Shown here: piece by piece, positions 22,372-49,327 of the stretch
Layout: every line of letters begins with the position of its first letter
Numbering within the stretch: position 1 is the first letter of the stretch
NCBI GenBank assembly: GCA_004431415.1
Contig: QPMI01000645.1
Span: 1 to 64,000 of the forward strand
Direction: 5' to 3'
Length of the DNA stretch: 64,000 bases
DNA from: Cyanophora paradoxa CCMP329
Taxonomy: Eukaryota; Plantae; Glaucophyta
Translations under genes and position numbers: made by a program
The notes under the pieces: model-generated
What the model was told of the DNA's origin: nothing
What the model saw: the letters and a program-made list of their open reading frames with translations, nothing else
The model's database searches: none

Positions 22372-22374
22372 CTC

Positions 22375-22385: not shown

Positions 22386-22638
22386 GTCAACGGCCGACCG
22401 TCGCGACTCCTCGGAGGAACCGACCTCGACCACGACCGCCACGACGCCCGCTTCAGCGCCGCGCATACCACGGGCGCTTGAAGGGGGAGACTCTGCCGAA
22501 ATTTACAGCGATTCCAGGCCCCTAGCACGCCAACGATCGACGACTGCGGCTGCGGACTGACACGCGGGACACGCGACTTACACCCTCACTGACACTACCA
22601 CTCCTCCTTTCCTACCTTTACGTCTACACGACTTCATC

Positions 22639-24669
22639 ATGTCCCGACACACGCGGCCCGCCCTGGCCCGCGTCTCCGACTTCTCGGCGATTGCGGCGGT
22701 CGCGGCGTCGCAGGAGATGCCCCAGCACCAGAAGTACGCTCGCCAGATCCAGCCGAAGGAGGAGCCGGTGCTGTTGAAGATCAACGAAGGCAACGTTTAC
22801 ACGTTCGGCTACCCGATGACGCACGCGAACGTCAAGCGGACGCTGGATCAGCTCGACAGCATCGTCAACCGTAAACCTTTCTTCGCGGGCAACCCGACCA
22901 CGCCAGACGAACGCGTCCGCGGCTCACTGATGCTCCGGGAGCTGGCGCAACTGTTTTCTCCAGAGGAGACGGACTTGTACCGCACCCGCCTGACCCAACA
23001 GGCGGACTTTGACAAGTACATCGCGCAAGCGGAGGCGAAACGGGCGGCACAGGAGGCGGTGGTGGAGGCCTTCAAGGCCGACCCCGGGAAGTCTCAGGAG
23101 CAGAAGGACCACGCGCAGGCGCAGCTCAACGCTCTCGAGGCGACGGTCCTCCAGGCGCGGGACATGATCCCGACGACAACTATCCGCTCGTACGAGGACT
23201 TCTGCACGTACGCACGCTCGCGCATCGACGAACGTGACAAACGGAACCTGGCGACGTGGGCGGACACGATGTACTACGGGATCCCGCCGCGGCTCCAGTT
23301 CGACTTGACGGTGGAGGCGCTCCAAGTCTCAGGCGTATCGATGACGCCAACGCTCATCGTACAGAAGCTGGAGACTCAGATTAACCTCCGGGCACGTGAG
23401 CACGACGACACTTGGGAGGTTTACCGGGACGATGCCGACCGCCGGCGTTCCAACTTCGACCTGTTGGTCGACAAGGTGATGCCCCAGCTGCGGGAACTCC
23501 AGCGGACGACCGAGAACGCCTTTCCGAACGACCCGGGCCTCGCGACGACGTCCTTCATCCAGCGGGCTCAAGATTGGTTGGAAAAGCCGGAGATCAGGCG
23601 CAAGTCGAAACAGGTCACCCTACTCGCAGGCGACACCCCGGCGAGCGTGGAGACAGGGGGCCCGGCGCGTGCCGTCCGCATGACACATGCCGAGGAGACG
23701 GAGGACGTCTTCGACAACCGCCGACAGGATCGCGAACTGACCGGCCTTGACACGACGCCGTACAAACGCCCCCGACACGAGACTGCTGGTTCACCGACGG
23801 GCACGCGAGAGTGGATGCCGAGCCCGACGGAGGGGTTGGCGGCACGGTTCGACAACAGCGCTAACATCGACATGCTGCGGGTGACGGAGTCGCTCCGAGC
23901 CCAGGTTCAGGAGCAGCATCAGCAGACGCAGGCTCAGCTTAACCAGCTACAGACCGCGATGGCCTCGCACATGCAGTCAGCGGCGCAGATGGCGCAGGCG
24001 GCGAACATCGCGGCGGTGCAGGCGACGCAGTTGTCGGCAGCGCAGCTGGCTGGCTCAGCCTTCCAGGCGGCGCCGTACAACCCGAACCGTCACGTCCCGC
24101 CGCCACGGCCATCACAGCCCCACGGCTTCTTCCAGCACGCTTCGCACTCGCCGGGTCAGAAGCCGAGCCCCCACGTACCGTGCACACTCGTACTTTCGCC
24201 CGACGGACGCGTCTGCGGCGTCATTCACTCCGTCCGGGCCAACAAGTACAAGCAGCTCATCGCATTCATTGACGTGGCCGACCCGAACCGCACGGAGCCG
24301 GTGACGAAGCAGCTGGGTCGGCCGCTGGTGCCGGAGTGCATGCTGGATTACTGCAGGCGTTGCGAGGCGATCTTCGGCACGGAGAACAGCAAGCACTGGC
24401 ATGACGACGTCGCAGTCTGCGCGATCCTGAGGGCCCTGCGCGCATTGGCGCCCCATCCCAGCCACCCCCAACTCCCCGTCGGCTGGTACCAGGCACTGCT
24501 GGACCGCGGCATCCTCCGGCCTTCACGGAAACCTCAGTTTGCGCCGTTCAACCAGCAGCTCGCCCTCCCGGCACCCCAGCCACAGCTCGCCCTTCCGGCG
24601 CCACCGCCCCAGCTGGCGCTCCCCGCTCCGCCGATGCAGCAACCGCCGCAGGCGACGCAGCAGCAGCGG
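22639..24669 (+). CDS. gag: ORF1 part 1: Gag N-terminal/capsid region (677 aa), interrupted at a codon boundary by insertion 1
   Basis: Long helical ORF just after the PBS, with a Cys/His cluster and QLALPAP x3. Joins in frame (CAG CGG|TGG CAG) to 36230, which leads to a CCHC knuckle. Confidence 0.8.
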
Positions 24670-24985
24670 TCGGGATTTGCGCTCTCAATGCGTAAATCGA
24701 GTTTTGCGCCGACGGAATGCGAACAAAGAAGACCGTAGCCGAGCGCCAGGCACGAAAGAGCTGAGCGACTCGCTAGCCGCGGAAGCGGCGCGAGGCGAGC
24801 ACGGGATTAGCAGCAGGCTGCTGCGAGCGCCCCTCAAGGGACTAGCTGAGCTAGCCGTTGGGCCGAGCCAGCGGGCTTGAAGCCGCCGAGCTCCGGGGGT
24901 ACGCTGATTCGGGGTTTCCCTTCACGCCCAGCTTCGCTCGCGGCCGCCCCAGGCCACGAAGCGACCAGCGGCGAAGCGAAATCGC
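24670..24985 (+). repeat. Split direct repeat A1 (~316 bp)
   Basis: Near-identical to 34710-35026 and to the reverse complements 52149-52465 and 61499-61815. Confidence 0.92.
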
Positions 24986-25614
24986 CACAGCCAGCACTGC
25001 AGTCACTCCTAAGCAGCCCTGTCGGACCGGCGGCCGCACTTCTCGGCCGTCCCTCCAATTGCACAGAGCTGACCAACTCTGCAGCACCACGGCTCGCCAT
25101 AGCTGCAGTGGAGCGCGATCCCGCGGCAGCAACTGCGCATGCCTCGATGGCTGGCCGGCGCAAACCCTGTTCCCAGCGATCCTCCCGGAATCGGCCTCGG
25201 GCCCCGATTCACGCTTGAATCTGGTTCCTTACTGCCGTGCCGGTACGTGGATTCACGTCCGGGCCCGCCCGCCACGCTCGCATTCCGCGCGCGCTGGCTA
25301 TCCCGGGGCCCACCGTCAGTCCGCGGCCGCCGGCTTGCCTATACACTCTATATAAGCGTGTATTGAGACCCGCCGCGCGATTCCTCCGGTTCCTGACCAA
25401 TTCCTGCACGCATGCTCCGGAGCTCCTCGGCGCTCGCACCGGACGTCGACACCGCCGCTGTGCCACGCCGGCGGAGCTCGCGCAGGACTGCCCCGGCCTG
25501 CTGGCGCGCGCGCTGCAGACCCACCGCGAAGTCGGGGCTTGGATCGTGCCTTACGCGTGATCCACCGACGGACGGTGCCCAGCCGCTCGCGCGGCTCGGG
25601 GAGGCGACGGAGTA

Positions 25615-26940
25615 CTAGTACGGCTCTCGCGTGCGCCTCGCGCTGTGGGACGGCCCGCGTGCGCCTCGCGCTGTGGTCCCTGTACTCGGAGTTCGGAGGC
25701 CGCGCGCGACTCTCGCTGTGGCCCGATCCCCCCGGCGGATTCCGGCCGCGACCGCGGCCGGCGAACTTCCACCAGGAGCACGGATCTCGCGAGCGCCTCG
25801 CTGTGAGATGGGCCCGCGTGCGTTCGTCGCTGTGGGCCCCCGTGCAAGGAGTTCCGGGGCCGCGTGCGCCCCGCTGTGGCCCCAGACCGCTTCAGCGGCA
25901 CCGGCCGCTCCCGCGGCCGGCGAACTCCCAACCTGGCCTTCGAATTCGACTCCCGCGTGCGCCTCGCGCTGCGGGACGGCCCGCGTGCGCCTCGCGCTGT
26001 GGGCCCCCTACTCGGAGTTCGGAGGCCGCGCGCGACTCTCGCTGCGGCCCGCTCCGCCCCCGGCGGACCCGGCCGCGCCCGCGGCCGGCGAACTTCGACC
26101 AGGAGCACGGGTCTCGCGAGCGCCTCGCTGTGAGATGGGCCCGCGAGCGTTCGTCGCCGTGGGCCCCCGTGCGCGGAGCTCCGGGCCGGGGCCGCGTGCG
26201 TCTCGCTGTGGCCCCAGAGCTTCACCCCGGAGTACGGCTCTCGCGTGCGCCTCGATCGCTGCGGGACAGCCCGCGAGCGTGCGCGCTGTGGGCCCTGTAC
26301 ATATATATATATATACTCGGAGTTCGGAGGCCGCGCGCGACTCTCGCTGTGGCCCGATCCGCCCCGGCGGATCCCGGCCGCACCCGCGGCCGGCGAGCTT
26401 CCACCAGGAGCACGGATCTCGCGAGCGCCTCGCTGTGAGATGGGCCCGCGAGCGTTCGTCGCTGTGGACCCCCGTGCGCGGAGCTCCGGGGCCGCGTGCG
26501 TCTCGCTGTGGCCCCAGATCTAGAGCTTCACCCCGGAGTACGGCTCTCGCGTGCGCCTCGCCCGCTGCGAGACGGCCCGCGAGCGTGCGCGCTGTGGGCC
26601 CTGTACTCGGGTTCGGAGGCCGCGCGCGACTCTCGCTAGCGCTGTGGCCCGATCCGCCCCGGCGGATTCCGGCCGCACCCGCGGCCGGCGAACTTCCACC
26701 AGGAGCACGGATCTCGCGAGCGCCTCGCTGTGAGATGGGCCCGCGAGCGTTCGTCGCTGTGGACCCCCGTGCGCGGAGTTCCGGGGCCGCGTGCGTCGCG
26801 CTGTGGCCCCAGAGCTTCACGCCGGAGTACGGACCTCGCGTGCGCCCCGCTGCGAGACGGCCCGCGAGCGTGCGCGCTGCGGGCCCCGGACTCGGAGTGC
26901 GTTACGCTGCGGACTATAGCTACGGCTCTCGCTGGCACGC
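25615..26940 (+). repeat. About 4 tandem ~300-bp repeats built from CTCGCGCTGTGG-like subrepeats
   Basis: CCAGGAGCACGG(A/G)TCTCGCGAGCGCCTCGCTGTGAGATGGGCCCGCG recurs at ~25772, 26099, 26404, 26699. Confidence 0.85.
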
Positions 26941-27529
26941 GCGCTGCGAGTATTAGTCGGCCCTCTGGCGCGTCTCGAGCTCGCTGCGGACTAGCCGCTA
27001 GCGCTAGCGCTGCTGGCGCGACCGCTACAGCCTCGCGATCGATCGCGATCGCAGAGTGTTTTGTTTGTTTTTGGTCAATTCTAGTCGATTCAAGGATTGA
27101 CTCGACCTTAAAACAAAAACAAAAACAAAAAACAAAAACAACGGACGTACCCGTTGTACCGGCCGGACTCCGGACTCCGGAGCCGCCGGACCCGCGGTCC
27201 CGCGCCGCGCGGTCTCACTGCCGCAGTGCCAGGCCGCTGACTCAGTGAGGCGGGCACTTCCGGGGGATCCGCTGCCGCAGTGCCGCCGCTGCGGCGCCGC
27301 ACGGCATGCGCAGTCTGCAGTGGCAGTACAGCCGCAGTGCCGCAGTGCGAGCTCGAGTCGGCCGGCGCCCGCAGCTGCAGCTGCCAGGCTGGCGCTTCCG
27401 CTACCGCAGTGCTGCCGCTGCCCCAGTGGCGCGTTACGCTGCGGACTACGGTCCCCGCTTGCGCTCTAGATTTCGCTGCGAGTCGGCCTGCTGGCGACCT
27501 TCCGCGCATCCGCGCCGCACCCTTGCGCA

Positions 27530-30500
27530 ACCCGGGCCCCCGCACCGCAGCTCGGCTCGCCGCCGCCGCCGGACCTGCCTGCGCAGGGCGGGCCGGCCGC
27601 TGGCCCGCCTGCGGCACTCCCCGGCTGGAGCCCAGGGCTCCACCTCCGTCCCGAGGTCCGAAAACGACCTCGCGCGGCCCCGCACCGCCGCGCCACCCGC
27701 CGCCGCCGCCTGACCTGCTTGCGCAGGGCGGGCCGGCCGCTGGCTCGCACGCAGCGCTCCCCGGCTGGAGCCCAGGGCTCCGCCTCCGCCCCGAGGTCCG
27801 TCACGACCTTGCGCGGCCCCCGCGCCGCCGCTCGACCCGCCGCCGCCGCCTGACCTGCTTACGCAGGGCGGGCCGGCCGCTGGCTCGCCTGCCGCGCTCT
27901 CCGGCTGGAGCCTTGGTCTCCACCTCCGCCCCGAGGTCCGTCACGGCCTCGCGCGGCCCCGTGCCGCCGCTCGACCCGCCACCGTGGCACCGCCGCCTGA
28001 CCTGCTTGCACAGGGCGGGCCGACCGCTGGCTCGCACGCAGCGCTCCCCGGCTGGAGCCCAGGGCTCCGCCTCCGCCCCGAGGTCCGTCACGACCTTGCG
28101 CGGCCCCCGCACCGCCGCGCCACCCGCCGCCGCCGCCTGACCTGCTTGCGCAGGGCGGGCCGACCGCTGGCTCGCCTGCGGCGCTCTCCGGCTGGAGCCC
28201 AGGGCTCCGCCTCCGCCCCGAGGTCCGTCACGGCCTCGCGCGGCCCCCGCACCGCCGCTCGACCCGCCGCCGCAGCCTGATCTGCTTGCGCAGGGCGGGC
28301 CGGCCGCTGGCTCGCCTGCCGCGCTCTCCGGCTGGAGCCCTTGGGCTCAACCTCCGCCCCGAGGCCCGTCACGGCCTCGCGCGGCCCCCGCACCGCCGCT
28401 CAACCCGCCACCGTGGCACCGCCGCCTGTCCTGCTTGCGCAGGGCGGGCCGACCGCTGGCTCGCCTGCGGCGCTCCCCGGCTGGAGCCCCGGGCCCCGCC
28501 CCGCCCCGAGGTCCGAAAACGACCTTGCGCGGCCCCACGCCCGCGCTCGACCGCCGCCGCCGCATAACCTGCTTGCGTAGGGCGGGCCGGCCGCTGGCTC
28601 GCCTACCGCGCTCTCCGGCGGGAGCCCAGGGCTCCACCTCCGCCCCGAGGTCCGTCACGGCCTCGCACGGCCCCGCGCCGCCGCTCGACCCGCCGCCGCC
28701 GCCTGACCTGCTTGCGCAGGGCGGGCCGGCCGCTGGCCCGCCTGCGGCGCTCTCCGGCTGGAGCCTTGGGCTTCACCTCCGCCCCGAGGTCCGTCACGGC
28801 CTCGCGCGGCCCCGCACCGCCGCTCGACTCGCCGCCGCCGCCGGACCTGCTTACGCAGGGCGGGCCGGCCGCTGGCTCGCATGCGGCGCTCTCGGGCTGG
28901 AGCCCTTGGGGCCCCACCTCCGCCCCGAGGTCCGTCACAGCCTCGCGCGGCCCCGCGCCGCCGCGCGACCTGCCGCCGCCGCCTGACCTGCTTGCGCAGG
29001 GCGGGCCGACCGCTGGCTCGCCTGCGACATTCGCCGGTTGGAGCCCTTGGGCCCCACCTCCACCCCGAGGTCTGAAGCGGCCTCGCGCGACCCCCGCGCC
29101 GCCGCTCGACACACCGCTGCCGCCTGACCTGCTTGCGCAGGGCAGGCCGGCCGCTGGCTCGCCTGCCGCGCTCTCCGGCTGGAGCCCAGGGCTCCACCTC
29201 CGCCCCGAGGTCCGTCACGGCCTCGCGCGGCCCCGCGCTGCCGCTCGACCCGCCGCCGCCGCATAACCTGCTTGCGCAGGGCGGGCCGACCGCTGGCTCG
29301 CATGCAGCCCTCCCCGGCCGGAGCCTTGGTCTCCACCGCCGCCCCGAGGTCCGTCACGGCCTAGCGCGGCCCCGCGCCGCCGCTCGACCCTCCGCCGCCG
29401 CATAACCTGCTTGCGCAGGGCGGGCCGACCGCTGGCTCGCCTGCGGCGCTCCCCGGCTGGAGCCCAGGGCTCCGCCTCCGCCCCGAGGTACGTCACGGCT
29501 TCGCGAGGCCCCGCGCTGCCGCTCGACACGCCGCCGCCGCCTGACCTGCTTGCGCAGGGCGGGCCGGCCGCTGGCTCGCACGCAGCACTCTCCGGCTGGA
29601 GCCCAGGGCTCCACCTCCGCCCCGAGGTCCGTCACGGCCTCGCGCGGCCCCGCGCTGCTGCTCGACCCGCCGCCACCGCATAACCTGCTTGCGCAGGGCG
29701 GGCCGACCGCCGTCTCGCCTGCGGTACTCTCCGGCTGGGGCCCAGGGCCCCGCCCCCGCCCCGAGGTCCGTCACGGCCTTGCGCGGCCCCCGTGCCGCCG
29801 CTCGACCCGCCGCCGCCGCCTGACCTGCTTGCGCAGGGCGGGCCGGCCGCTGGCTCGCACGCCGCGCTCTTCAGCTGGAGCCCAGGGCTCCACCGCTACC
29901 CCGAGGTCCGTCACGGCCTAGCGCGGCCCCGCGCTGCAGCTCGGCGTACCGCCACTGCCTGACCTGCCTGCACAGGGCGGGCCGGCCGCTGGCTCGCCTG
30001 CCGCGCTCTCCGGTTGGGGCCCAGAGCTCCACTTCCGCCCCGAGGTCCATCACGGCCTCGCGCAGCCCCGCGCTGCCGCTCGACCCGCCGCCGCCGCATC
30101 ACCTGCTGGCGCAGGGCGGGCTGGCCGCTGGCTCGCACGCAGCGCTCCCCGGCTGAGCCCAGGGCTCCACCTCCGCCCCGAGGTCCGTCTCGGCCCCGCG
30201 CGGCTTCGGGCTGCCGCTCGACCCACCGCCGCCGCATAACCTGCTGGCGCGGGGCTGGCCGGCCGCTGGCTCGCATGCAGCGCTCCCCGGCTGGAACCCA
30301 AGGCCCCACCTCCGCCCCGAGGTCCGTCACGGCCTCGCGCAGCCCCGCGCGGCCGCTCGACCCGCCGCCGCCGCGTAACCTGCTTGCGCAGGGCGGGCCG
30401 GCCGCTGGCTCGCACACAGCGCTCCCCGGCTGGAGCCCAGGGCTCCACCTCCGCCCCGAGGTCCATCACGGCCTCGTGCTGCCCCGCACTGCCGCTCGAC

Positions 30501-33500: not shown

Positions 33501-33730
33501 GGGCTGACCGCTGGCTCGCCCACGGTGCTGTCCCACGGGCGCTCCAGGCCCTGAGGCCCCGCGACTGCTCCCGCGGCCTTCTGCGGCCCCCACACCTCCA
33601 CGCGGCGCGCTTCCGCCGCCTAACCTGCTTGCACAGGGCAGGACGGTGGTGGGCTCACTTTCGGTGCTCACCGGCTGGGATGGTTTTAGATTCCGCCGCG
33701 GCCCGAGGTCCGTAACGGCCTCGCGCGACT
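27530..33730 (+). repeat. 139-bp GC-rich tandem satellite, roughly 44 diverged units
   Basis: Unit CCTGCTTGCGCAGGGCGGGCCGGCCGCTGGCTCGC...GGCTGGAGCCCAGGGCTCCACCTCCGCCCCGAGGTCCGTCACGGCCTCGCGCGGCCCC; repeat-derived ORF starts recur at multiples of 139 bp (29133, 29411, 29550). Confidence 0.93.
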
Positions 33731-34155
33731 TCACGCCGACGCGCAGTGCGACCGCCTTGCCCGCCCTCCACCCGTAGCGCGCCCCTGGCCCGCACCGCCC
33801 AGCATGACTTGTCGGCGGCGGGGATCTGGCGGCGCAACTATCAAGCGCCGCCCCGGTTCGTCGACTGTCCCATAGGGTACGACGAGAACCCCCCAGCCTT
33901 CTGTGCCGGCTCGTTCCCTCGGGCTTCTTGGCCCGCCCCGGCCCCATGTTGTTGTCCGAATTCACGCTCTCTGCCCGTCCCTCCTACAGCGCAGTGCGCT
34001 GGGGGATAGGGGCTCAGCGTCCGAGACACGTTGGGGTAGCGGGGGAGGAGGAAAGAGAGGGGGGGGGGCAGGAGGAGGGTGGATCAACCCTCACCCTCTT
34101 GATCACTTTTGTCCTTATGTATGCTATTCTGGCTGGCTGTGACCTGACTCTTGTT

Positions 34156-34709
34156 TGGTAGGGGGTACTGCATTCGTGCTGCGTTCGCTACGCTCACCCC
34201 CGCGGCCTCCGGCGGCGGTACCCGGCTTCGGATCCCGAACCCGGAAGAAACCGCGTACCCCTCCCCGGGGTACGCCGTTCGCCCCAACCGGCCCCACAAG
34301 GCGCGGCCCGAGCCGAACGCGTACCCCGGAGAGGGGTACGGCGTCAGAGCGGCCCCGATCAAGTGTACCCCGAGCGGGGTACCCCGATCGGCCCCGCGAC
34401 GGCCCGAGCGGAGTACCCCGAGCGGGGTACACCGTCTCGACCCGCAACGGCCCTCCCCGGGGTACAGGCGCCTAGCACGCTTACCCCGGAGAGTTCTTGT
34501 TCCGGAACTCGCAAGGGCGAGGCCGGAATGGCATACGGCGATCCGCCCTGGTCGATCGCCAACGTATTATGATACGTGGTTCCCGGGAAAGCAGCCTTGA
34601 GCTGCCGTACCTCAGGGCCCAACCCGATGCGCTATCCCGTGCATCTAGCTAAGTAGTGTCAGGCGTAAGATAGCTAGGTCTTCTGCATTCGAATGAAGCG
34701 AGGCGTAAA
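34156..34709 (+). repeat. Split direct repeat B1 (~555 bp)
   Basis: Near-identical to 35673-36229 and to the reverse complements 50945-51502 and 52466-53023. Confidence 0.92.
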
Positions 34710-35026
34710 TCGGGATTTGCGCTCTCAATGCGTAAATCGAGTTTTGCGCCGACGGAATGCGAACAAAGAAGACCGTAGCCGAGCGCCAGGCACGAAAGAG
34801 CTGAGCGACTCGCTAGCCGCGGAAGCGGCGCGAGGCGAGCACGGGATTAGCAGCAGGCTGCTGCGAGCGCCCCTCAAGGGACTAGCTGAGCTAGCCGTTG
34901 GGCCGAGCCAGCGGGCTTGAAGCCGCCGAGCTCCGGGGGGTACGCTGATTCGGGGTTTCCCTTCACGCCCAGCTTCGCTCGCGGCCGCCCCAGGCCACGA
35001 AGCGACCAGCGGCGAAGCGAAATCGC
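34710..35026 (+). repeat. Split direct repeat A2, abutting B1 (internal copy of the end-to-start junction)
   Basis: ...GAGGCGTAAA|TCGGGATTTGC... is the element 3' terminus fused directly to its 5' terminus. Confidence 0.92.
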
Positions 35027-39200: not shown

Positions 39201-42200
39201 GTCTTCGCGGAGGAGCGGGCAAGCGGACCCGGTCGACCGCAGGCATCAGCTCAGGCGAGGACGACCCGCCACGGCAGCGCCCAAACCGCCCACCGACGCC
39301 AGCCGTGACGGACCCCGCGCTCGGGCTCGCCCAAAGCGCGCAGGCCGTGATGACGACGGCGTCAGCAGAGGCCGCAGAGTTGCAGCGCGTGGAGAAGTTG
39401 GCACCCGCTGGCGAGCAGTGCCTGATGACGGCGGAGGCCGCGGAGACGCAGCGCGCGGAGGGCGCGGAAACGCCACCTGCAACGGACCCCACGTTCGGGC
39501 TCGCCCAAAGCGTGCAGGCCGTGACGGCGGCGTCAGCAACGGAGGAGGACGCGAAGGCGTTGGCACCCGCTGGCGAGCGGTGCCCGACGGCGGCAGAGGC
39601 CGCGGAGACGCAGCGCGCGGAGGGCGCGGAAACGCCACCTGCAACGGACCCCACGTTCGGGCTCGCCCAAAGCGTGCAGGCCGTGACGGCGGCGTCAGCA
39701 ACGGAGGAGGACGCGAAGGCGTTGGCACCCGCTGGCGAGCGGTGCCCGACGGCGGCAGAGGCCGCGGAGACGCAGCGCGCGGAGGGCGCGGAAACGCCGC
39801 CTGCAACGGACCCCACGCTCGGGCTCGCCCAAAGCGTGCAGGCCGTGACGGCGGCGTCAGCAATGGAGGAGGACGCGAAGGCGTTGGCACCCGCTGGCGA
39901 GCGGTGCCCGACGGCGGCAGAGGCCGCGGAGACGCAGCGCGCGGAGGGCGCGGAAACGCCACCTGCAACGGACCCCACGTTCGGGCTCGCCCAAAGCGTG
40001 CAGGCCGTGACGGCGGCGTCAGCAACGGAGGAGGACGCGAAGGCGTTTCAGTTGGCACCCGCTGGCGAGCGGTGCCCGACGGCGGCAGAGGCCGCGGAGA
40101 CGCAGCGCGCGGAGGGCGCGGAAACGCCGCCTGCAACGGACCCCACGCTCGGGCTCGCCCAAAGCGTGCAGGCCGTGACGGCGGCGTCAGCAATGGAGGA
40201 GGACGCGAAGGCGTTGGCACCCGCTGGCGAGCGGTGCCCGACGGCGGCAGAGGCCGCGGAGACGCAGCGCGCGGAGGGCGCGGAAACGCCACCTGCAACG
40301 GACCCCACGTTCGGGCTCGCCCAAAGCGTGCAGGCCGTGACGGCGGCGTCAGCAACGGAGGAGGACGCGAAGGCGTTGGCACCCGTTGGCGAGCGGTGCC
40401 CGACGGCGGCAGAGGCCGCAGAGACGCAGCGCGCGGAGGGCGCAGAAACGCCACCTGCAACGGACCCCACGCTCGGGCTCGCCCAAAGCGTGCAGGCCGT
40501 GACGACGGAGGCGACGGCAGCGGAGCCAGGCGGCGACGTCGTAACAACACCACCACCGGACGCCCCACAAGAGCACACGTACTCTCCGAACTCGCCTTCC
40601 CATCCGGATCACCCCATGAACATCACGAGGATGGAGATCGACTCGCCGTCAGAGCACACGCATGACGAGGCGGAGCACACGTGGGAGGCGAATTATCGAC
40701 GACGGCTGAAGACGGGCCAGACGATTAACAACGACACTCGATACCGTGCACTCGCAGAGTACACGATGGACAAGTACGGAGTCCCGCGGTCGTCAAACGT
40801 GAGACGCCAGGTGGCGGACGGATTGATGCGCAATATGGACCCCCCACCCCGAACGGCACCAGCCCACCAGGCCCTACACCCGGGCAACGCGGAACTGATT
40901 GCGGAACTCACACGGGCGGACGCGGGCGAACTGCTCAACGCCCATGCAGGCCCGATCGACGAGCGGTGGCTTGGGCTGTGGGGGAGGTTGACATCAGACG
41001 GACGTTGGCGACTCCTCCAGTGGACGGCAATGGAACGCAACGTCGACACGGCTACGCTGGCCGCGCAAGAACACCGAGAACGAGCGGCGAAGTTCGCCGA
41101 GATCCAGGCGGCGGGCGGGGGCCGGCGGATGCAGGAAGTCGAGCGGGGCGAGGAGCCACGCGCGTGGGAGACAACCGTGGCGGCGGACGTCGCGCGGGCT
41201 TACGCGGTCCACCGGGGCATCGACAAGGAGATGTCTACCGCCGGGATCGGCGACGGCAACGTGGAAGAAGCCCTGAGGTCGCTGAGCTCTCGTGAGGCCG
41301 GCTACTACAGGGTCGTCAGTCGGGCGGTCTTCACGATGCTCGGAACCAACACGGTCTGGAACCCGCAGTGGATCACGGGAGGACGCCCGGGGGGCCCCCC
41401 GCCGACCCACTTACCACGATCCATGAGACCAAAGGAGCGGTCGATGATGGACTACGAGTTCACGAACCCATCGCAAGAGGAGGGCGTTCGCGAGCGGCAG
41501 ATCTGGCAACACCTGGCGCCGCTGATGGAGGCCGTCAAGCCGTGGGTTGGACTCACGGATACAGCCCGCTTCGGAGCACTCGCTGCGGAGGCTGACAAGC
41601 GACGTGTCTCGGTGGAACAGCTGCCGGACATACTGATCGAGGAGTGGGGACAGCTCTGCGACCTCGCGCGGCAAGCAGGCTACTTGCGGTGGGAGCGCGT
41701 TGCAACGGGCGCGGATAACCCCAGGCACCAGCACGTCGCGGTGGCCGACATTTTCGTCCAGACACTCGACCTTCTCGGCCGCCTGGACCACGAGCGGGAC
41801 CGGTACCACCCGGGCCAACCCTGGTTCAAGGTGTTCCGAGCGCTGGCGGCCGAAGAAGCGGGTTATGGGAAGGGGAGGCGGGCGCGAGAGCTGTACGAGC
41901 AACTCGCAACCCTACGGGACTCCGTCACAGGACGTGCTGAGACGGAGACGCTACTGAAGATGTACCGCGGGGAAAACGGCTGGGACGGCTGGCAGTACCG
42001 GCTGCCGCACGCAACGGCGTCGGTAGAATTCTCAACGGTCTACACGTCGCGCGACCTGAACAAGACGCGAACGGGGGAGAGGCCGTACATCGACAGGGAC
42101 CTGACCGAGCCATTCCGGATGGATACCGAACTCCCCAGGCGTGACTTCAGCATCTGGATGGCGCGCCAATCGCGTTATGTACGTGACGGGAAGAGCCTTC

Positions 42201-45200
42201 CCTCGCCACCGCTGAGCCGACACTGGGGAGAGGGCGCGTACGGCACAGACAAGGAGAGTCTCGTGGTCACGACGCAAGTGGAAGTGCAGGCAGCACTACT
42301 ACACGCCAAGCTTCCACAGTTCAGGCGGGCAATGGCAGCACTGATCATGACGGGGTTCTCGGGCTTCGTCGACCCCTTTGTCGAAGCGCCGGAGCGGCGT
42401 TGCAGCGGGGAGATCAGCGACGCGGCATGGCGCGACTCGGCCAGGCAGGGCCTTTCGTGCCTCGGACACGATAGCCTTCTCGCACTGTTCGGCGTCGAGA
42501 TGCGCGAGATCGGACACTTCACCAACGCAGTCGACAGCATCATGCCCACGCTCGTCGCGTTGGGTATCGAGCTTGGCAGACGGCTGAATGGCGAGCGTCA
42601 GCGACGCGGGCGAGGCGCCCCCATCCAGTTCGACACGGGGCTTCTCGAAAAGGCGCTAACGTCCCAAGCAATGGATGAGGCAGTCGAGGAAGCTACCCGT
42701 TACGTCATGCTAGCGGCAGCCACGATGGAGACGCCGCCAGCACTGGAGGAGTGCCCCGACGCCGAGGTCGCTTTGCGACTCCGTACGCACGCGATAACGT
42801 GCGGACTGTCACTCTTCCTCGCGGCGCGGGACCCGAGGGCGGAAGGAGGTCTCCAGTGCCCTCGCACACTGTGGGACTCGAAGGGCAGCGAGGTCGAGTG
42901 GGTGGACGTGCTCAACACGAACCGAGCGTTCGACTACGACCTCCCGGACGGGTTCCTGGTGACGTTCCTCGTGGAGATCTGCGAGAGCTTCTTGACGGTG
43001 GCGCGGTATGCACGCACAATCGACGGGCGTACACCGACGATCGCTTCGGTGGCTGCAGCGGAGGACAACGAGAGTAGGGCCCTCTTCACGCGCACCAGGC
43101 CTAGCTTGCGCACGGGCCGCACAAACGTGAACCTCGAGGCACTCTCCTGGAGCACTGCCTTCCGTACGGCACTCGGCTTCACGGGCAAAGCGCACCTGTT
43201 CTGCGACCTCATGGAGGAGTTGCTCTACGTGAATGCGATGGCGGTGGATGTACCGTTCAGATTGGTCGACGGCGACTTACGGGACGGAGCACGACGGGAG
43301 GCGATTGCCACCTACCTGCGCCAACGGCGGGTGATCCCCGTACACTACAGATTCGTGTCTCGCGAGAGCAAGACGCGCGCGATTGTGCACCTCACGTACT
43401 CGGCGGGGCTGGCACGGCTGCGTCGGGATCACAACGTCATCCGTGACAGCATTGCCATGCTCGCCATCGAACTGCACAACGACCGGGAGGAGGGGAACAA
43501 GCCGAACGCAGCGTTCAGTTGGGCTCCGCAGCCGCCCCAGGCCCCCATGCACCTGGCAATTCACGATCCCGATGTCACGTGGTACGCGGCGCCTTTTCAG
43601 TCGACACCGTTCATCCTTGGCCGGCGGGGGGAGAATCTCCGGCTAGTTCCCATCGCAGTGGCGATGACGTCGCTCAGGACCCTCTTGCTCAGAACGGTCA
43701 CGGAGCGGCTGCGCGAGTCCATGACAACGGCGATTGCGACAGCGACGGGCGAGTCGGACCCGCACAGCGCGAAGGCGCAGCAGGCTGTACGAGTACTGAC
43801 TTCCTGGATCATGGAGATGGCGGCGTCGCCCTTCAAGGCGTACACGGTCGCAATGATTGTGGGCCACCCAATGCAATTCTTCACTCTCCTGCGCACGCTC
43901 CATCGCGAGCAGCTGCAGCACGGCAACGAGGGACTGCAGCGTTACCCGCTGACTCCGAACCGGCAACTCCCCGTCGTCATGCAAGGGCGGCGGCAGGACT
44001 GGGAACGGAACATCCCGCTACACCACTTGCCCGTACGCTCGGCAAAACCCGGCGCCTGGCCGTACTACGCGGGCGCCAACGCTTTCGGTCTCCCAACGGT
44101 GATGGAGGGGGAGATGAACGAGACGGAACGCCGAGTTATCGTGCACTTTGCGCTACGTCCGGCCCCGAACGTTGCAGGACCAAGCGGCGGCTCTGCGACA
44201 ACGGTGGCGACGCTATCGCCCCCTCAGGACGCTCGGCCTGAGAGCGCGGCAGTCGCCCTCGTGGCGAGCGGCGACCCGGCCCGGATTAACACGAGCCGGC
44301 GACCTGCGAAGCCCCACGAGGTGACGGCCGTCGACATGCTACTCCATGGAGGGCCACTGGCACAGGCCGTCGGCAAGCAACTGCAGCACGGGGACGGCGC
44401 GTTGACGGCAGACGACAGAGCAATCCAGCAGGACCTGTTCGTCCCGACACCTCTCCCACGCCACGACGTCGACACGGATCCCTTGCTCCTTCGGGATCAG
44501 CCGGCGAGCGGCTACTTCCACTACACCACGTGGAGACGCCTGCACGAGCGGGCCGAACCGGTTGACGGTGCCATCGCCGCGGCGTTCGAGTCACAACGGG
44601 CACGGGCACCTCGCATCCAAGGGCGGCTCTTCCAGCAGGCGATGGGCCAGCTGCTCGGACAGCCAACAGGCCCGCGGGCCAGACCGGGGGAGGAGCGCGC
44701 TGGAGCGCCAAGCGCCCGGCCCCTGGCCGAGGCCCCGCAACGCCGGCGGAGGCGCCAGCAGCCACAACCGGAGGACCAGCCCTGGGAGCGTTACGATGCA
44801 CTGGGACGGGTGTGCATCAACGGGGACGAGCTCACGCTCTTCACGGACGTCAAGGCGGGGACAACGGCGCTGCAGAGCCGGTTCGAGTACAGGGCTCCGA
44901 CGCGGACGGCGCTGGCCTGGCAGCATCCGAGTCATCCCACCTCCGCCGAGGAGCTGACGACGGACCACGGATCCGTGTTCGACCCGGCCCGCGACGACGA
45001 CATTCATGCAACGATGGTGTTCGAGGTGCAGTTGCCAACGACAACGGAGCGACACTGGCTCGGGACGGACGACGGGACGGGCCACGACCTTCTTCTCGGG
45101 TTCTCGCATGTCCCCGACCCGCATCGGGAACTGACAGCGGTCGCCCACCTGGCTTCCTGCTTTGCCACGACAGCCTTGCGCGTCCACTTGGCATTCCCCT

Positions 45201-48200
45201 TGGTAGCCTGGCTATTGAACGCACTGACGGGGCTACCAACGAGCGTGGAGGCGGCAGCTCACAGTTGCAACCTGCCGACGGGATTGGGGGCGTACGACAT
45301 CCTGATGGTTCGCGAGACGAAGCTGCGGCAGTACGTCTGCGCCAGCGACACGCTCCGGGCGGTCATGATGCGCGAGATCGCTGTCTGGTACAACGCCGGG
45401 ACCATGCTGAGCAGAGTCGTCGCATTCCTGCAGGACTTCAACAAGCCCGGCGTGCTCAACCGCCACGACTGGCCCTGCTCGACAGAGTTGGAATTCCAGA
45501 CGGCGGATCCGCGACAGGTCCACGTCGCCCCGCAAATCTACCCCTGCTTCCTGGGTGACGTCTGCGTGCACCCGGTGCCCAGCGAGCACTTCGAACACTA
45601 CAGCCCGACTAACCCGCAACGGACACCGCTCGAGCCCGACGTCGGGCGGGAGATGTTCCCAATCGACCTGCAGAATGAGGTCATGCCGCCGGCTCGTGTT
45701 ACGCTGAGCTCAAAGACGCGCGAGGGCCAACAGAGATTCCAGCAGTACGCCGTCCAGCAAAATGCGTTCACACAGCGACTTCTCGGGCTCCGGGAAGAGC
45801 GCTCGGAATTTCCAGCAGCTCTGACCTCGTTCGGGCACTTCGTCGGGGCGCACGGCGTTATCGTGAGCGTGGGTAGTTGCGTGAATTCACAAACACGTGA
45901 CGAGTTGTACGAACAAGGGGGAGTGACCGAGCGGCAAGCCCGTCGTTGTCCGCGACACCCGGAGGTCTTTGCGGTCCTCGGATTCCGACGCGAAGTGGTA
46001 CGCGCACAGATCAGCTCGGGGTTCATCCTGGCTGCGGTCATGCAGCTGCACGCGAGCAACCCGCGGCTTTCGACACCGATGCCAGCGGAGGTGGCGGATC
46101 ACATCCAGCAGCGCTGCTGTTACATGACGGGCTACCCGGCGTATGTCGAGGCCGTGCCCGAAGCCACTGAGAGCGACATGTGCGACGGCACGTACCACGT
46201 GCAGCCGGCACTGATGAACTTCCTCACGAGACATGGTTTCACCTGCCCGGAACCATCAGTCTTTGCGGAGAGCATCCGGCTGGGCATCATGCAGGCGGCG
46301 ACTTTCTTCCGCGGCTTCCGCTTCTACAAGCCTCGTCGGCCCGTAGATCCATGCACGCTGGACAACATGATCGCGGTACCGGTGATGCGGGCGTTCACGA
46401 TTACCGCGGACGGCGACGGCAACCAGCAGACACACGTCGACGCGTCGCAACTGGAGGAGGTGGCCGATCGGTTCGCGCTGATCTTCGACCGCTGGTGGAG
46501 TATGGGTGAAGCGCACGAGGGAGCGGCGTTGGACCCGCTCCATACGTCACTGTTCCCCATCCTCCTCGACGAGATGCTGCAAGGGGAGAACAGCGCCTTG
46601 TGGACAGAATTCACCACGTGGCTACGTGACGCGTACGGGGACGAGGCCCTGCACATCACCCACGCGGGCCCGCTGGTGTACCACGAGGCGCAGGCGGGAC
46701 CGGAAGGGCACCCGGAGGGTGTGGCAGAAGACACCAGCCTGCGCCTGCGGGCGACTAACCCGCTCCCGTACTACCTGCACTCTGCGCCCAAGCGGCGTGG
46801 CGACGCGTTCATCGACTGCAGTCTAGTAGGAAGTGGGGCCAGGGAGCTGGCGGACTACACGGTGTGGATTGCTCTCCCGCCCGAACCGGAAGCTGGCGGA
46901 ACTGGAGACGACGACGACGACGGGGCGGATGGAGGCGACGGAGGTCAGGGTGGCTCTGGGCGGGGGCCGCGACGCCGACGGGCAGGCCGGACTCAACGTC
47001 CGCCGCCCTCGACGGACGAGACAAGCTCACAGGCGCCCACCTCGGCAACGTCGGAAGGGTCGAAGCGGGCGCGCACTCGGATGGGGCGCAAGCTGCAGAG
47101 ACGCCTCGCGGCCAGCGCCAAGGCGACGGTGGGCACAACAGGCGGAGCGCCAACAGCGTCATCAACGACAGATTCGACGTACGGGGGCTCGACATCTACG
47201 ACAACAGCGTCGTCAGCGGCGACGACGATGTCGTCATCGGCGTCGGTCTACAGCTCGGAGACTGGGGACACAGCGTCGTCGGTGTACGTGACGGCACCGT
47301 CCGAGTCGGAGGCGGCAACAACAGCACCACGGCGAGTTGCACGAGCGCTCATTCCTACATCACTCCGCGCCATCGCGAAGTACATGCTCTCGATAGACTA
47401 CACGGACCTGCAGTTCGTCACGTTTCTCCAAACAGCAACGCGATGGACGAAGTACCACGGCTCGGGGCAACTCCTCCTCTTGGCAGGAGCAGGGGCGTCA
47501 ACGACCGGGGAAGGCGGCGCCTGGTACGACCGGGACTTCGTAACGCAAGTCGACGCGATCGACTGGACGAGTCTACGGCTCTCTCATAGCCTCGTCTACA
47601 CGCGCATGATTCACTTGGCGGCGTACATCGCACGGAGGACGGCGCGATGGGCCGTGGACGGCACAGATTCTCGCTCGGCGGCGCGGAAACTGGAGGTGCA
47701 CAGGCAGGCGGTCTTCTACGTGACGGTAGTGAGCAACGCGTGCGGGCGAACGACGCGGGAAACTCTCCTGGCCAAACGCGTACCCCGGCTCGTCCCCGCC
47801 GCGGCCTGCATTGATCTGCCAAAGGAGGCGGCGCTGACGGCGCCGGACACGGTCACGTGGTACACGAAGCGAATCCTGTCGGTGACGCCACTCGAGTTCG
47901 ACGGAATCGTGAGCCAGCTGTGCACGTTCATCAACGCTTGCACAGATGCAAGCTGCGCCCTGCCCTGCGACGTCCAGAACCCCGTGTGCGTGGCGACAGT
48001 GGATCGCCGACTCGTGGCACGAATGTATGAAGGGCGTACACCGGAGGCAGAGCTGAGGCGGATCCCGGACCTGATCCACGAGGTGCAGAGTGACCTCACG
48101 GTGCTGCAAGGACTCTACGAGACGACGCAGCGAATCCAGAAGGAGCTCGGCCGCCCCGCACGCAACAGCGATTTGGCGCTGGAACTCGCGGTCAAGGAAT

Positions 48201-49327
48201 GCGTGATCGTGTCCGCATTCGAGCACCCTTTCCGCCAGCTGCGTTTCGGAGAAGGGCCCCAGCGTCGACCAACACTCTCGCAACGCGCGGGCGTCGGCTT
48301 CTTCGGGAAGCGCGCCTCTTCGGATTCCGCGCAGGCAGGAGACAGTAGTGAGGACGATCGGCCCGCTCCGCCAGCAACGCCATGGCGAAGCACGCGTGCA
48401 CATCGACGAGTCCTTCGGCTGGCGGCAGCAAACCCCGCAGCCCGCCAGATGCAGCTCCTACATCCCAATTCGATCACGACGAGCGCGGACCCCGAGTTTG
48501 TCTTCCACCCTGCGAGCCTCCCTCTCCTCACACGGGTGCTGGCGGTGCACACGGACGACGCGGGCACACCGACGACCACCGTATCGCCGGTGGTGGAGGC
48601 GTTGGCCAAAGAGCTCGCAGAGGGCATCTCGCGCACAGTCGGAGGAGAGGTGGGCAAGCTGCTGGCGGAGAGGCTCGTCGCGAGCGCCGTGAAGCGCGAT
48701 CAGAACGCCTGGATGGACCGCCTCCAGGCGACACGACTGCTGGTGGAGTGTGGAATCGCGGCGTTGGGGGCGAACGGGTGGGCCAAGGAGAGCATCCTGA
48801 TCAAGGTCATCGTGGACTCCGGGGCGGAGGTGGATGTCTTGGACGGCAGTGTGGCTGAGATGATCCCCGGCCTCACCTACCTCAACGAGCGCGTGCCCCT
48901 CGTCGGCTTCCAGTCGAACATCACGACGTATGGCCGCACGGCACACGTGGTTCTGACGTTGGGCCCGGTCCGCCTCGCGCGGACAGTCGTCGTCACGTCG
49001 CCGAACTCCATGGGCGATGTCAAGATGCTGCTCGGCTTGTCGACCCTCATCGCGCTCCGCGCTCAGATCAGCTGCGCACCGGAGATGTGGGGCATGCACA
49101 TCACCTCGCCGGACGACCAGGAGAACCACTTCGTCCCTTTTCGTCCTCGGACCGAACCGGAGGGGCCGTTCCGGTCCGCCTTCTCCGTCCCCTCTACGTA
49201 CCAAGAGGCGAAGCCTTCGTACGGTGCCATGTGCCGGACCTGCGGAGCCAGCTTCCGGTTCAGCAAGACGAAGTCCGCATCACAGCGTTCGGCTCGCCCG
49301 ACGCGGACCCGCTTGACTCAGCTGTAG
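36230..49327 (+). CDS. ORF1 part 2: CCHC zinc knuckle - ~4,100 aa unknown region - retropepsin aspartic protease
   Basis: CYNCGKEGHVAARC at 36320-36361, in the same frame as the 4326-aa ORF. Protease IKVIVDSGAEVDVL (DSG at ~48815) ... KMLLGLSTLIALRAQI. No stop codon over 13 kb. Confidence 0.9.
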   Translation, partial: WQQHAGGANRNTGRPGGGGGRRDDPRGPLVCYNCGKEGHVAARCPDPPRERRGGGDYRAVQPPAQANYAATGANATPTAPAQPPISQEQVNSMLQVVQAALLNKAGTNAVAANTPEAEALCREVIRQYLQRMAEEKLTGSERRRRRRAAREAVDATAAGAEQLELRTASWEDDGRMERQSDGTPSSNWATPAGSSGSASPMSTGTPRGREPMVTDGAAAGLAQTAQPDGTCDDATDPLHGPETATVNGAAVGLAQTAQPDTTPVNTAATETGPTDPASELARNAQSESAPLSTFFTSVLERARRSFAALHIRLQGEAVMPEEERTAARQEREEDDPGSGSEDAENDSLDGGPLRLRGGGGSNTPTPDGGDDAFNSEAVQDVIDPMPPLTALPAPVPLGPGQIELLGVAVDPAEMAAAEEQDDPPPLWRSDDEARGDPDSDDDLYPPTGTYPNGYDSDCSSTAYYPTTMLDIELADARAAAARRGVTVEQHLAEQLAEAEAALDRPQSPSDVWAGVAARMSPGSERAPGSISTYVDEWLLGIAMTTEANPAADTATPATPAAATVLRARARLLAGRAIADRAARHRTDARDTQRELQGDATARDDVADQVHDGLMQPAVLRLIAQEAARRVIGARAVDRGTTYQAAQQTIRGDVTAERELTEAVLADLRQWRQTGAAAEATAAVTEACNTPMLYTVYDTTSGFLNPPQQTPTLIAPPARLLHPGVMPFGSSSGTSTGLYDRTVEDVLAMQLAGLLDADGQPTATADADRDQTRETDAAEVPYTPTFAEGRTRVEIIANLLRAVENRLETMPPPPPLPHMPPIHYVDDEAIIQGQAETIVDAIIATLRHRVDDPRTELRRRLGDELSRWTGGPYIVYHNRGQIARLHAAFLRALDRIAIMQQCRPPPPPRPRHESDDDEDDLNGFGPSDAATKSNAGRTAQTTATTASGSGRRRPSPLEEVDPLETLLEVFYQAKLAVHATTDAPDTAGTVLRLRGGAGKRTRSTAGISSGEDDPPRQRPNRPPTPAVTDPALGLAQSAQAVMTTASAEAAELQRVEKLAPAGEQCLMTAEAAETQRAEGAETPPATDPTFGLAQSVQAVTAASATEEDAKALAPAGERCPTAAEAAETQRAEGAETPPATDPTFGLAQSVQAVTAASATEEDAKALAPAGERCPTAAEAAETQRAEGAETPPATDPTLGLAQSVQAVTAASAMEEDAKALAPAGERCPTAAEAAETQRAEGAETPPATDPTFGLAQSVQAVTAASATEEDAKAFQLAPAGERCPTAAEAAETQRAEGAETPPATDPTLGLAQSVQAVTAASAMEEDAKALAPAGERCPTAAEAAETQRAEGAETPPATDPTFGLAQSVQAVTAASATEEDAKALAPVGERCPTAAEAAETQRAEGAETPPATDPTLGLAQSVQAVTTEATAAEPGGDVVTTPPPDAPQEHTYSPNSPSHPDHPMNITRMEIDSPSEHTHDEAEHTWEANYRRRLKTGQTINNDTRYRALAEYTMDKYGVPRSSNVRRQVADGLMRNMDPPPRTAPAHQALHPGNAELIAELTRADAGELLNAHAGPIDERWLGLWGRLTSDGRWRLLQWTAMERNVDTATLAAQEHRERAAKFAEIQAAGGGRRMQEVERGEEPRAWETTVAADVARAYAVHRGIDKEMSTAGIGDGNVEEALRSLSSREAGYYRVVSRAVFTMLGTNTVWNPQWITGGRPGGPPPTHLPRSMRPKERSMMDYEFTNPSQEEGVRERQIWQHLAPLMEAVKPWVGLTDTARFGALAAEADKRRVSVEQLPDILIEEWGQLCDLARQAGYLRWERVATGADNPRHQHVAVADIFVQTLDLLGRLDHERDRYHPGQPWFKVFRALAAEEAGYGKGRRARELYEQLATLRDSVTGRAETETLLKMYRGENGWDGWQYRLPHATASVEFSTVYTSRDLNKTRTGERPYIDRDLTEPFRMDTELPRRDFSIWMARQSRYVRDGKSLPSPPLSRHWGEGAYGTDKESLVVTTQVEVQAALLHAKLPQFRRAMAALIMTGFSGFVDPFVEAPERRCSGEISDAAWRDSARQGLSCLGHDSLLALFGVEMREIGHFTNAVDSIMPTLVALGIELGRRLNGERQRRGRGAPIQFDTGLLEKALTSQAMDEAVEEATRYVMLAAATMETPPALEECPDAEVALRLRTHAITCGLSLFLAARDPRAEGGLQCPRTLWDSKGSEVEWVDVLNTNRAFDYDLPDGFLVTFLVEICESFLTVARYARTIDGRTPTIASVAAAEDNESRALFTRTRPSLRTGRTNVNLEALSWSTAFRTALGFTGKAHLFCDLMEELLYVNAMAVDVPFRLVDGDLRDGARREAIATYLRQRRVIPVHYRFVSRESKTRAIVHLTYSAGLARLRRDHNVIRDSIAMLAIELHNDREEGNKPNAAFSWAPQPPQAPMHLAIHDPDVTWYAAPFQSTPFILGRRGENLRLVPIAVAMTSLRTLLLRTVTERLRESMTTAIATATGESDPHSAKAQQAVRVLTSWIMEMAASPFKAYTVAMIVGHPMQFFTLLRTLHREQLQHGNEGLQRYPLTPNRQLPVVMQGRRQDWERNIPLHHLPVRSAKPGAWPYYAGANAFGLPTVMEGEMNETERRVIVHFALRPAPNVAGPSGGSATTVATLSPPQDARPESAAVALVASGDPARINTSRRPAKPHEVTAVDMLLHGGPLAQAVGKQLQHGDGALTADDRAIQQDLFVPTPLPRHDVDTDPLLLRDQPASGYFHYTTWRRLHERAEPVDGAIAAAFESQRARAPRIQGRLFQQAMGQLLGQPTGPRARPGEERAGAPSARPLAEAPQRRRRRQQPQPEDQPWERYDALGRVCINGDELTLFTDVKAGTTALQSRFEYRAPTRTALAWQHPSHPTSAEELTTDHGSVFDPARDDDIHATMVFEVQLPTTTERHWLGTDDGTGHDLLLGFSHVPDPHRELTAVAHLASCFATTALRVHLAFPLVAWLLNALTGLPTSVEAAAHSCNLPTGLGAYDILMVRETKLRQYVCASDTLRAVMMREIAVWYNAGTMLSRVVAFLQDFNKPGVLNRHDWPCSTELEFQTADPRQVHVAPQIYPCFLGDVCVHPVPSEHFEHYSPTNPQRTPLEPDVGREMFPIDLQNEVMPPARVTLSSKTREGQQRFQQYAVQQNAFTQRLLGLREERSEFPAALTSFGHFVGAHGVIVSVGSCVNSQTRDELYEQGGVTERQARRCPRHPEVFAVLGFRREVVRAQISSGFILAAVMQLHASNPRLSTPMPAEVADHIQQRCCYMTGYPAYVEAVPEATESDMCDGTYHVQPALMNFLTRHGFTCPEPSVFAESIRLGIMQAATFFRGFRFYKPRRPVDPCTLDNMIAVPVMRAFTITADGDGNQQTHVDASQLEEVADRFALIFDRWWSMGEAHEGAALDPLHTSLFPILLDEMLQGENSALWTEFTTWLRDAYGDEALHITHAGPLVYHEAQAGPEGHPEGVAEDTSLRLRATNPLPYYLHSAPKRRGDAFIDCSLVGSGARELADYTVWIALPPEPEAGGTGDDDDDGADGGDGGQGGSGRGPRRRRAGRTQRPPPSTDETSSQAPTSATSEGSKRARTRMGRKLQRRLAASAKATVGTTGGAPTASSTTDSTYGGSTSTTTASSAATTMSSSASVYSSETGDTASSVYVTAPSESEAATTAPRRVARALIPTSLRAIAKYMLSIDYTDLQFVTFLQTATRWTKYHGSGQLLLLAGAGASTTGEGGAWYDRDFVTQVDAIDWTSLRLSHSLVYTRMIHLAAYIARRTARWAVDGTDSRSAARKLEVHRQAVFYVTVVSNACGRTTRETLLAKRVPRLVPAAACIDLPKEAALTAPDTVTWYTKRILSVTPLEFDGIVSQLCTFINACTDASCALPCDVQNPVCVATVDRRLVARMYEGRTPEAELRRIPDLIHEVQSDLTVLQGLYETTQRIQKELGRPARNSDLALELAVKECVIVSAFEHPFRQLRFGEGPQRRPTLSQRAGVGFFGKRASSDSAQAGDSSEDDRPAPPATPWRSTRAHRRVLRLAAANPAARQMQLLHPNSITTSADPEFVFHPASLPLLTRVLAVHTDDAGTPTTTVSPVVEALAKELAEGISRTVGGEVGKLLAERLVASAVKRDQNAWMDRLQATRLLVECGIAALGANGWAKESILIKVIVDSGAEVDVLDGSVAEMIPGLTYLNERVPLVGFQSNITTYGRTAHVVLTLGPVRLARTVVVTSPNSMGDVKMLLGLSTLIALRAQISCAPEMWGMHITSPDDQENHFVPFRPRTEPEGPFRSAFSVPSTYQEAKPSYGAMCRTCGASFRFSKTKSASQRSARPTRTRLTQL
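39307..40505 (+). repeat. Coding tandem repeat, 162 bp / 54 aa, about 7 copies
   Basis: ATDPT(F/L)GLAQSVQAVTAASA(T/M)EEDAKALAPAGERCPTAAEAAETQRAEGAETPP; period 162 (39481, 39643, 39805...), one unit has 6 extra bp. Confidence 0.93.
49135..49195 (+). promoter_or_regulatory. Predicted -1 programmed ribosomal frameshift signal (slippery heptamer plus H-type pseudoknot)
   Basis: C CCT TTT (49135-49141) in ORF1 phase; 6-nt spacer; stem CGGACCG/CGGTCCG (49148-54/49172-78); loop GGAGGGG (49159-65) pairs with CCCCTCT (49189-95); pol is in the -1 frame. Confidence 0.8.

Follow-up and report, generated by a model that had tools for sequence, protein, structure and literature searches.

The window, i.e., the whole 64,000-nt stretch of Cyanophora paradoxa DNA that was analyzed, contains a giant retrotransposon that its sequence places in the Ty3/gypsy group. 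In this element, 4,165 aa (12.5 kb, close to the 12.4 kb given in an earlier note on this DNA) lie between the CCHC zinc knuckle of Gag (36320) and the catalytic aspartate of the protease (48815). Sequence comparisons indicate that this insert, termed X, is under purifying selection and is not a chance capture. They also mark it as an orphan, with nothing similar outside C. paradoxa among the databases searched.

Results

The giant reading frame and its 5′ end

On the plus strand, 36194-49327 comprises 4,377 codons without a stop; over 36230-49324 the remaining five frames contain 45-122 stops. The probability of finding zero stops by chance over this region is about 1e-45, and GC3 is 0.70-0.86 all along the frame. 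The earlier note had stated that removal of 24670-36229 leaves 5,042 stop-free codons. This was confirmed by the frame arithmetic, as 22639-24669 (677 codons) and 36230-49324 (4,365 codons) are both multiples of three. In addition, the junction is read through uninterrupted in two gene models from two other contigs, P0006 (4,903 aa) and P0009.

Table 1. Features of the giant element and its nested insertions in the window
Feature	Position	Strand	Remarks
Probable 5′ LTR start	21526..21700	+	TG at 21526 (TGTATTG); LTR end not fixed
ORF1, N-terminal 677 aa, start ATG 22639	22639..24669	+	Gag by position
Nested non-coding element, copy 1, 11,560 bp	24670..36229	+	Interrupts ORF1
ORF1, remaining 4,365 aa (knuckle, X, protease)	36230..49327	+	Open frame, Pfam
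CCHC zinc knuckle	36320..36361	+	PF00098 (zf-CCHC), E 2.6e-5
LRLRGG motif 1	37286..37303	+	322 aa after knuckle
LRLRGG motif 2	39197..39214	+	Also in P0001, P0004, P0006
162-nt (54-aa) tandem repeat, x7.3	39308..40508	+	Low complexity; varies among copies
Ordered-looking orphan part of X	40667..42676	+	By composition; no significant Pfam/PHROG match; sister sequence does not cover it
Conserved orphan part of X, ~2,050 aa	42677..48826	+	Colinear with sister family up to protease
Putative basic stretch, NLS-like	47060..47107	+	Conserved in sister family; judged by eye
Domain D, motif F-x(7)-DW-x(5)-SH	47327..47779	+	Weakly detected in P0131 and P0141, same position
Aspartic protease	48800..49048	+	DSG, catalytic D at 48815
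Slippery heptamer C CCT TTT	49135..49141	+	Read in the ORF1 frame; candidate -1 shift site for pol
pol, first part: linker and reverse transcriptase	49135..50944	+	RVT_1, E 1.3e-33; YVDD at 50653-50664
Nested element, copy 2, inverted, 10,871 bp	50945..61815	-	Interrupts RT; flanks in frame
pol, second part: RNase H and long linker	61816..64000	+	PF17917, E 4e-25; integrase beyond window

At the 5′ border of the element, a single-copy contig stops at 21556 in all four runs, and the depth rises sharply over 21466-21779. The 3′ end lies beyond the window, no 3′ LTR was found within the 64 kb, and no PBS was identified. In the 5′ leader, ARAGORN reported a tRNA-Gly(GCC)-like fold on the minus strand (22233-22302), for which Rfam gave nothing at the gathering score; the fold could be related to priming or could simply be a hairpin that formed by chance. 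The leader also contains a block of about 60 bp in two imperfect copies (22280-22480), ending GAAGGGGGAGACTCTG, which varies among copies. Rfam did not yield a match over 19000-52000.

The capsid domain of Gag was not detected by sequence in Pfam or PDB, and a Gag profile built from four sequences matched only knuckles and integrase in PDB. A Cys/His cluster (CxxC...H...C) at 24170-24440 precedes the CCHC knuckle and is found in conserved form in two related families; it is a possible second zinc site.

The host flank contains gene pieces at 2226-2774 (+), 4383-6164 (-), 7726-8721 (-), and 9099-10166 (+); these correspond to leucine-rich repeats, a Rho RNA-binding domain (E 1e-14), a TATA-binding protein, and a Sec1 family protein. 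It also contains a repeat pair of 890 bp with 89% identity (816-1703/4367-5294), a pair of 310 bp with 85% identity (11742-12050/15974-16286), and a three-copy array with units of about 1,160 bp (12440-15454).

Two nested split-repeat elements

The first nested element has split direct repeats in the order A1...B1-A2...B2, with repeat A at 24670-24993 and 34710-35034 (98.8% identity), repeat B at 34153-34710 and 35670-36230 (99.3%), and an A2-B2 spacer of 635 bp. The two nested copies are about 95% identical overall and 100% identical across 1,430 nt, and both carry 139-bp (satellite) and ~295-bp tandem arrays. A target-site duplication is absent at both insertions. In run X1, a contig at about three times the single-copy depth departs from the window at 24670, and the contig depth at the left end of the nested elements is far above single-copy.

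The split repeats A1...B1 A2 B2 are shared with the PAT/Ngaro-type tyrosine-recombinase elements (PMC6681497). The nested elements also resemble TOC1 of Chlamydomonas, at twice its size. PAT/Ngaro-type elements are not known to generate target-site duplications. RT, RNase H, and tyrosine recombinase were not found in the five ORFs scanned, and because the nested element is mostly satellite without such a coding match in these ORFs, it is at most non-autonomous. An autonomous partner should exist elsewhere. As two nested elements were inserted, the retrotransposon copy in the window was disabled twice.

Protease, predicted frameshift site, and pol

The protease gave a match to PF13975 with an E of 0.003, which falls short of the curated cut-off, and it is 42-63% identical to the proteases of related families. 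Three slippery heptamers of this kind were found, and only C CCT TTT at 49135 lies inside the ORF1/pol overlap. From there, the -1 frame is open for 624 codons, into RT. A downstream hairpin at the site was not significant (z 0.29). The linker between protease and RT contains a faint dUTPase-like match (PF04797, E 0.16). The best PDB matches of the RT were 4ol8 (E 3.4e-55) and the Ty3 Gag-Pol structure 7q5b (E 3.3e-54), followed by a match with 6.9e-34.

After nested copy 2, pol resumes in frame with RNase H. The neighbor of P0006, P0010, contains RT, RNase H, and integrase and is 97-100% identical to the window pol. The order PR-RT-RH-IN is thus composed of PR, RT, and RH in the window and of IN after RH in P0010. 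Using the P0010 model, the frameshift product would have about 6,760 aa in total and about 6,370 aa before the integrase, in line with the more than 6,300 aa proposed in the earlier note. RNase H is separated from the integrase zinc finger by about 620 aa without a Pfam match (window 62320-64000, P0010 residues 500-1116), and related families have long RNase H-integrase linkers, too.

The RT type, the PR-RT-RH-IN order, and the CCHC knuckle bear out the earlier assignment to Ty3/gypsy (Metaviridae, e.g., Ty3 of yeast), with which the element also shares a pol linked by a frameshift, as predicted here. In contrast to usual Ty3/gypsy elements, it has 4,165 aa from knuckle to protease, its protease is in ORF1, about 620 aa separate RNase H and integrase, and the capsid is not detectable by sequence. 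The chromodomain, a feature of the chromovirus branch, was absent from the Pfam matches of P0010, P0143, P0145, P0153, P0154, and P0159.

Other copies and related families

The other copies are known solely as automatic gene models. As the aligned parts of models P0003 and P0005 do not differ from the window ORFs, these two models were not counted as independent. ORF1 was found in gene models from three other contigs, with 87-99% identity. One other copy is split into three models (P0001, P0008, and P0007), P0004 is gapped, and P0006 has an internal duplication plus gaps. In the runs, indel joints at the single-copy level were found at 44664, 46127, and 48132. The split or gapped models and the indel joints may reflect decay or assembly error. 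The giant element is low-copy in C. paradoxa.

A sister family has an RT with 93% identity to that of the window; the identity is 63% in the protease region and 33% in Gag (P0145, over 662 aa of the N-terminal part of ORF1). Three more distant families have 1,300-2,450 aa ahead of the protease, which is located at residue 1,904 in P0131 (RT 73%), at residue 1,332 in P0141 (RT 68%), and at residue 3,007 in P0153 (RT 60%, knuckle at 560). The P0153 insert had no significant likeness to X of the window. In an RT tree from a quick search (44 rows, none dropped), all 20 Cyanophora rows were separated from the 24 others with a branch support of 100. The sequences thus compared indicate that a long insert before the protease is a trait of the clade. 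In the gene model P0166, which represents a more distant RT lineage, the protease is preceded by about 1,000 aa that include an RS-rich tract but lack a CCHC knuckle.

Conservation and selection of X

About a third of X is of low complexity, which includes the 162-nt repeat at 39308-40508, and the part at 40667-42676 looks ordered by composition. Residues 2150-4199 of ORF1 are 35% identical to the sister model P0002 over 2,176 columns and colinear with it up to the DSG of P0002 itself. Per 100-aa bin, the identity of the conserved part is 24-60%. Internal repeats were not found in aa 1481-4190. The identities of X (35%), Gag, RT, and the protease region show that X diverges like Gag yet stays colinear. 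As estimated from these values, the rate of change in X is similar to that in Gag and greatly exceeds that in RT.

Variant rows span 40560-51000, and 40 of the 459 rows were listed. The 39 of these that concern X comprise 25 synonymous and 14 non-synonymous changes and 0 stops, which corresponds to a pN/pS of 0.19-0.25 (p <= 1.6e-5). For comparison, the value was 0.05-0.07 for the 22 gag rows listed. The earlier note had proposed selected accessory proteins. Their selection is supported by the sister conservation and the pN/pS; their accessory identity is conjectural, as no domain can be named. Two findings would have spoken against the proposal, namely an insert that is missing or stop-ridden in other copies and a match to a host gene or nested TE. 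Neither was obtained: X is kept by copies and families, and no host or transposon match was found.

Domain D was recovered with an HMM (i-E 6.6e-6 among 5 targets) and with hhalign (score 25.5 versus a maximum of 23.1 for 40 shuffled sequences). It is predicted to be helical, at low confidence (model pLDDT 37.5).

Searches for relatives and folds of X

With Pfam, only the knuckle was above the cut-off for the whole ORF1, four X slices, and P0002. None of 7 proteins was significant with PHROGs. PDB yielded knuckles only by sequence and best E values of 0.82 and 0.25 with the X profiles A1 and A5. Homologue searches gave 2 matches among 7,995 shorter candidates and 2 among 1,520 candidates of similar length, all from C. 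paradoxa. A profile of 1,162 positions (aa 2850-3960) was compared with 1.84 billion representatives and matched once, to its own family. Pattern scans were not confirmed in any of 137 and 596 metagenome stretches or 102 viral stretches. The ESM Atlas contained nothing usable for domain D, and the best value for aa 2150-2640 was 0.80. With AlphaFold2, a model of 1,200 aa built on 2 sequences reached a pLDDT of 27.4, and one of 331 aa built on 5 sequences reached 37.5. Fold searches with the latter gave nothing at E <= 0.001, and the model is so poor that this result carries no weight. Transmembrane-like stretches were not found in either family, and no hydrophobic 19-mer exceeded 1.51. In the searches run, X contained no protease-like or other recognized domain.

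Two LRLRGG motifs in X

X contains two exact copies of LRLRGG, the C terminus of ubiquitin. There is no further copy in the six frames of the window, and 0.001 are expected per ORF. Three of the six codons differ between the two copies, and all differences are silent. In the sister model P0145, motif 1 is located 289 aa after the knuckle; it is part of a block of about 45 aa that is homologous to that of the window and has four tandem units with two exact LRLRGG. For motif 2, the sister sequence does not cover the corresponding region. LRLRGG was not seen in the models P0131, P0141, and P0153, though these models skip parts. A ubiquitin fold does not precede the motifs, i.e., the 70 aa upstream are of low complexity, have a hydrophobic fraction of 0.18-0.20, and gave no ubiquitin match with Pfam. 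Cuts after both motifs would yield proteins of 1,035, 637, and 3,370 aa.

Based on their sequence and position, the motifs are likely to be processing sites, as predicted here. Di-glycine sites in polyproteins are cleaved by viral deubiquitinases (DUBs), and the bare peptide RLRGG-AMC is a substrate of a DUB encoded by a transposon, a Helitron (PMC9741609). In pestivirus polyproteins, ubiquitin inserts act as processing signals (PMC8310069). As in these viruses, LRLRGG in X lies within a polyprotein, where a cut could plausibly release a product. However, the pestivirus inserts are nearly whole ubiquitin, whereas X has the bare LRLRGG, and cleavage at bare di-glycine sites is performed by proteases that the respective viruses encode themselves, whereas none is recognizable in X. 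A description of LRLRGG in LTR elements was not found in the literature, where papers on LRGG and transposons were judged by title.

Discussion

A model for ORF1 processing

We regard the following model as rather probable. ORF1 would be translated whole as a 5,042-aa Gag-X-protease polyprotein. A deubiquitinase-type protease, encoded by the host or the element, would cut after LRLRGG and release a Gag of 1,035 aa and the 637-aa and 3,370-aa pieces, and the aspartic protease of the element would trim the 3,370-aa piece further. Gag and soluble accessory proteins would result, and Pol would be made by a minority -1 frameshift after the protease. Owing to the early release of Gag, the size of the particle protein would stay close to normal, with X made in Gag-like amounts. 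Several observations count against the model: the ubiquitin fold is lacking, LRLRGG was not seen in the distant families, no protease-like or other domain was recognized in X, the ORF models are unclean, the hairpin is not significant, and the copy in the window is itself disabled by the two insertions. In addition, a Pol that loses Gag through early cleavage would have to enter the particle by some other route.

The function of the X products is more doubtful. Tentatively, they may be soluble proteins, some of them nuclear, that act against silencing by the host or guide the element within chromatin. This proposal is based on the fast divergence, the conserved basic stretch, the lack of membrane segments, and the methylation of repeats by the host, which is 32% CpG in C. 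paradoxa (PMC12344493).

A different role of the motifs was considered, in which X is selected and expressed, but LRLRGG serves as a binding or decoy motif for enzymes of the ubiquitin system and the aspartic protease is the sole processor. The absence of a ubiquitin fold before the motifs and of LRLRGG from the three more distant families agrees with this role, and the fourfold tandem amplification in the sister family fits binding as well as cutting. However, both families have the site at a distance of 289-322 aa from the knuckle, where a cut would free a Gag of normal size, and bare RLRGG can serve as a DUB substrate (PMC9741609). A decoy function is rather unlikely.

Splicing is considerably less probable. 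The giant ORF would be real, but a spliced message would join gag to protease-pol, and X would be expressed from a separate message or preserved in frame otherwise. The automatic models P0002 and P0145 of the sister family indeed skip large parts of X as introns. However, the skipped parts differ between the two models and hence look like artefacts of gene prediction, and the frame is open and selected from the knuckle through the protease.

The likelihood that X encodes an envelope or another virion protein and that the element spreads between cells is similarly small, perhaps slightly smaller. The position would match the in-frame env of Burro (PMC6431247), and domain D is predicted to be helical, at low confidence. 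Against this, neither family has a transmembrane-like stretch, and a fusion-protein match was not obtained (best PDB profile E 0.25; no fold at E <= 0.001 with the poor model). Lastly, host or nested DNA that was captured recently, is neutral, and is in frame by chance has nothing in its favor as a source of X except that some other copies look damaged. This reading is refuted by the 35% colinear sister conservation and the pN/pS near 0.2, and the lack of a host or transposon match also speaks against it. Cleavage at LRLRGG remains our preferred reading.

Comparison with other large elements

The layout is not without precedent, as the earlier note overlooked the planarian element Burro/GYPSM1, in whose ORF1s (4,873 and 5,140 aa) the Gag knuckles and the protease are separated by accessory domains (PMC6431247). 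Both elements share an ORF1 of about 5,000 aa with Gag, a CCHC knuckle, thousands of accessory residues, and then the protease. Both also have a link to the ubiquitin system, Burro through SUMO-like and MATH domains and the Cyanophora element through LRLRGG. Burro has a dUTPase-like stretch between protease and RT, whereas the match is only faint in the Cyanophora element. The MATH, BIR, ankyrin, BCL2, and SUMO-like domains of Burro had no Pfam match in the whole ORF1 or the four slices. Instead of the Burro env homology before the protease, no significant match or transmembrane-like stretch was found here, at a sensitivity below that of HHpred. Burro has thousands of copies, whereas the Cyanophora element has a few, and its terminal repeat looks short. 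Burro is found in planarians, whereas the Cyanophora element is algal and its RTs form a Cyanophora-only group in a tree without a Burro sequence. A Burro RT was not identified among the 120 RT matches listed. Because the named domains and the env of Burro are missing, the Cyanophora element was not filed as Burro. An origin independent of Burro is likely, with the proviso that the RT tree contained no Burro sequence.

Ogre of plants is likewise a large gypsy element (PMC6431247) with extra coding capacity. In the Cyanophora element, the extra sequence is inside ORF1, whereas the size of Ogre results from long LTRs and one or two separate extra ORFs. For the C. paradoxa genome, LTRs were reported to make up 1.77%, and giant elements are unmentioned in the available part of that report (PMC6704402). 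A description of the giant-element clade was not found in the Cyanophora literature, supplements and Repbase aside.

It is conceivable, though we would not yet favor it, that the elements represent an undescribed glaucophyte clade that independently acquired Burro-sized polyproteins of unique domains, in which DUB-cut ubiquitin-tail motifs free Gag and fast-evolving anti-host proteins. After Burro, the element is a second case of LTR elements with thousands of accessory residues between Gag and protease, and its algal host is only distantly related to planarians, which suggests that this layout arises repeatedly. About 2,700 ordered, selected residues have no relative detected outside one alga and therefore probably represent new domains. 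As automatic annotation breaks such ORFs into spliced, host-like gene models, elements of this kind are easily overlooked. If LRLRGG is a true cut site, it would reveal a route of retrotransposon processing via the ubiquitin system.
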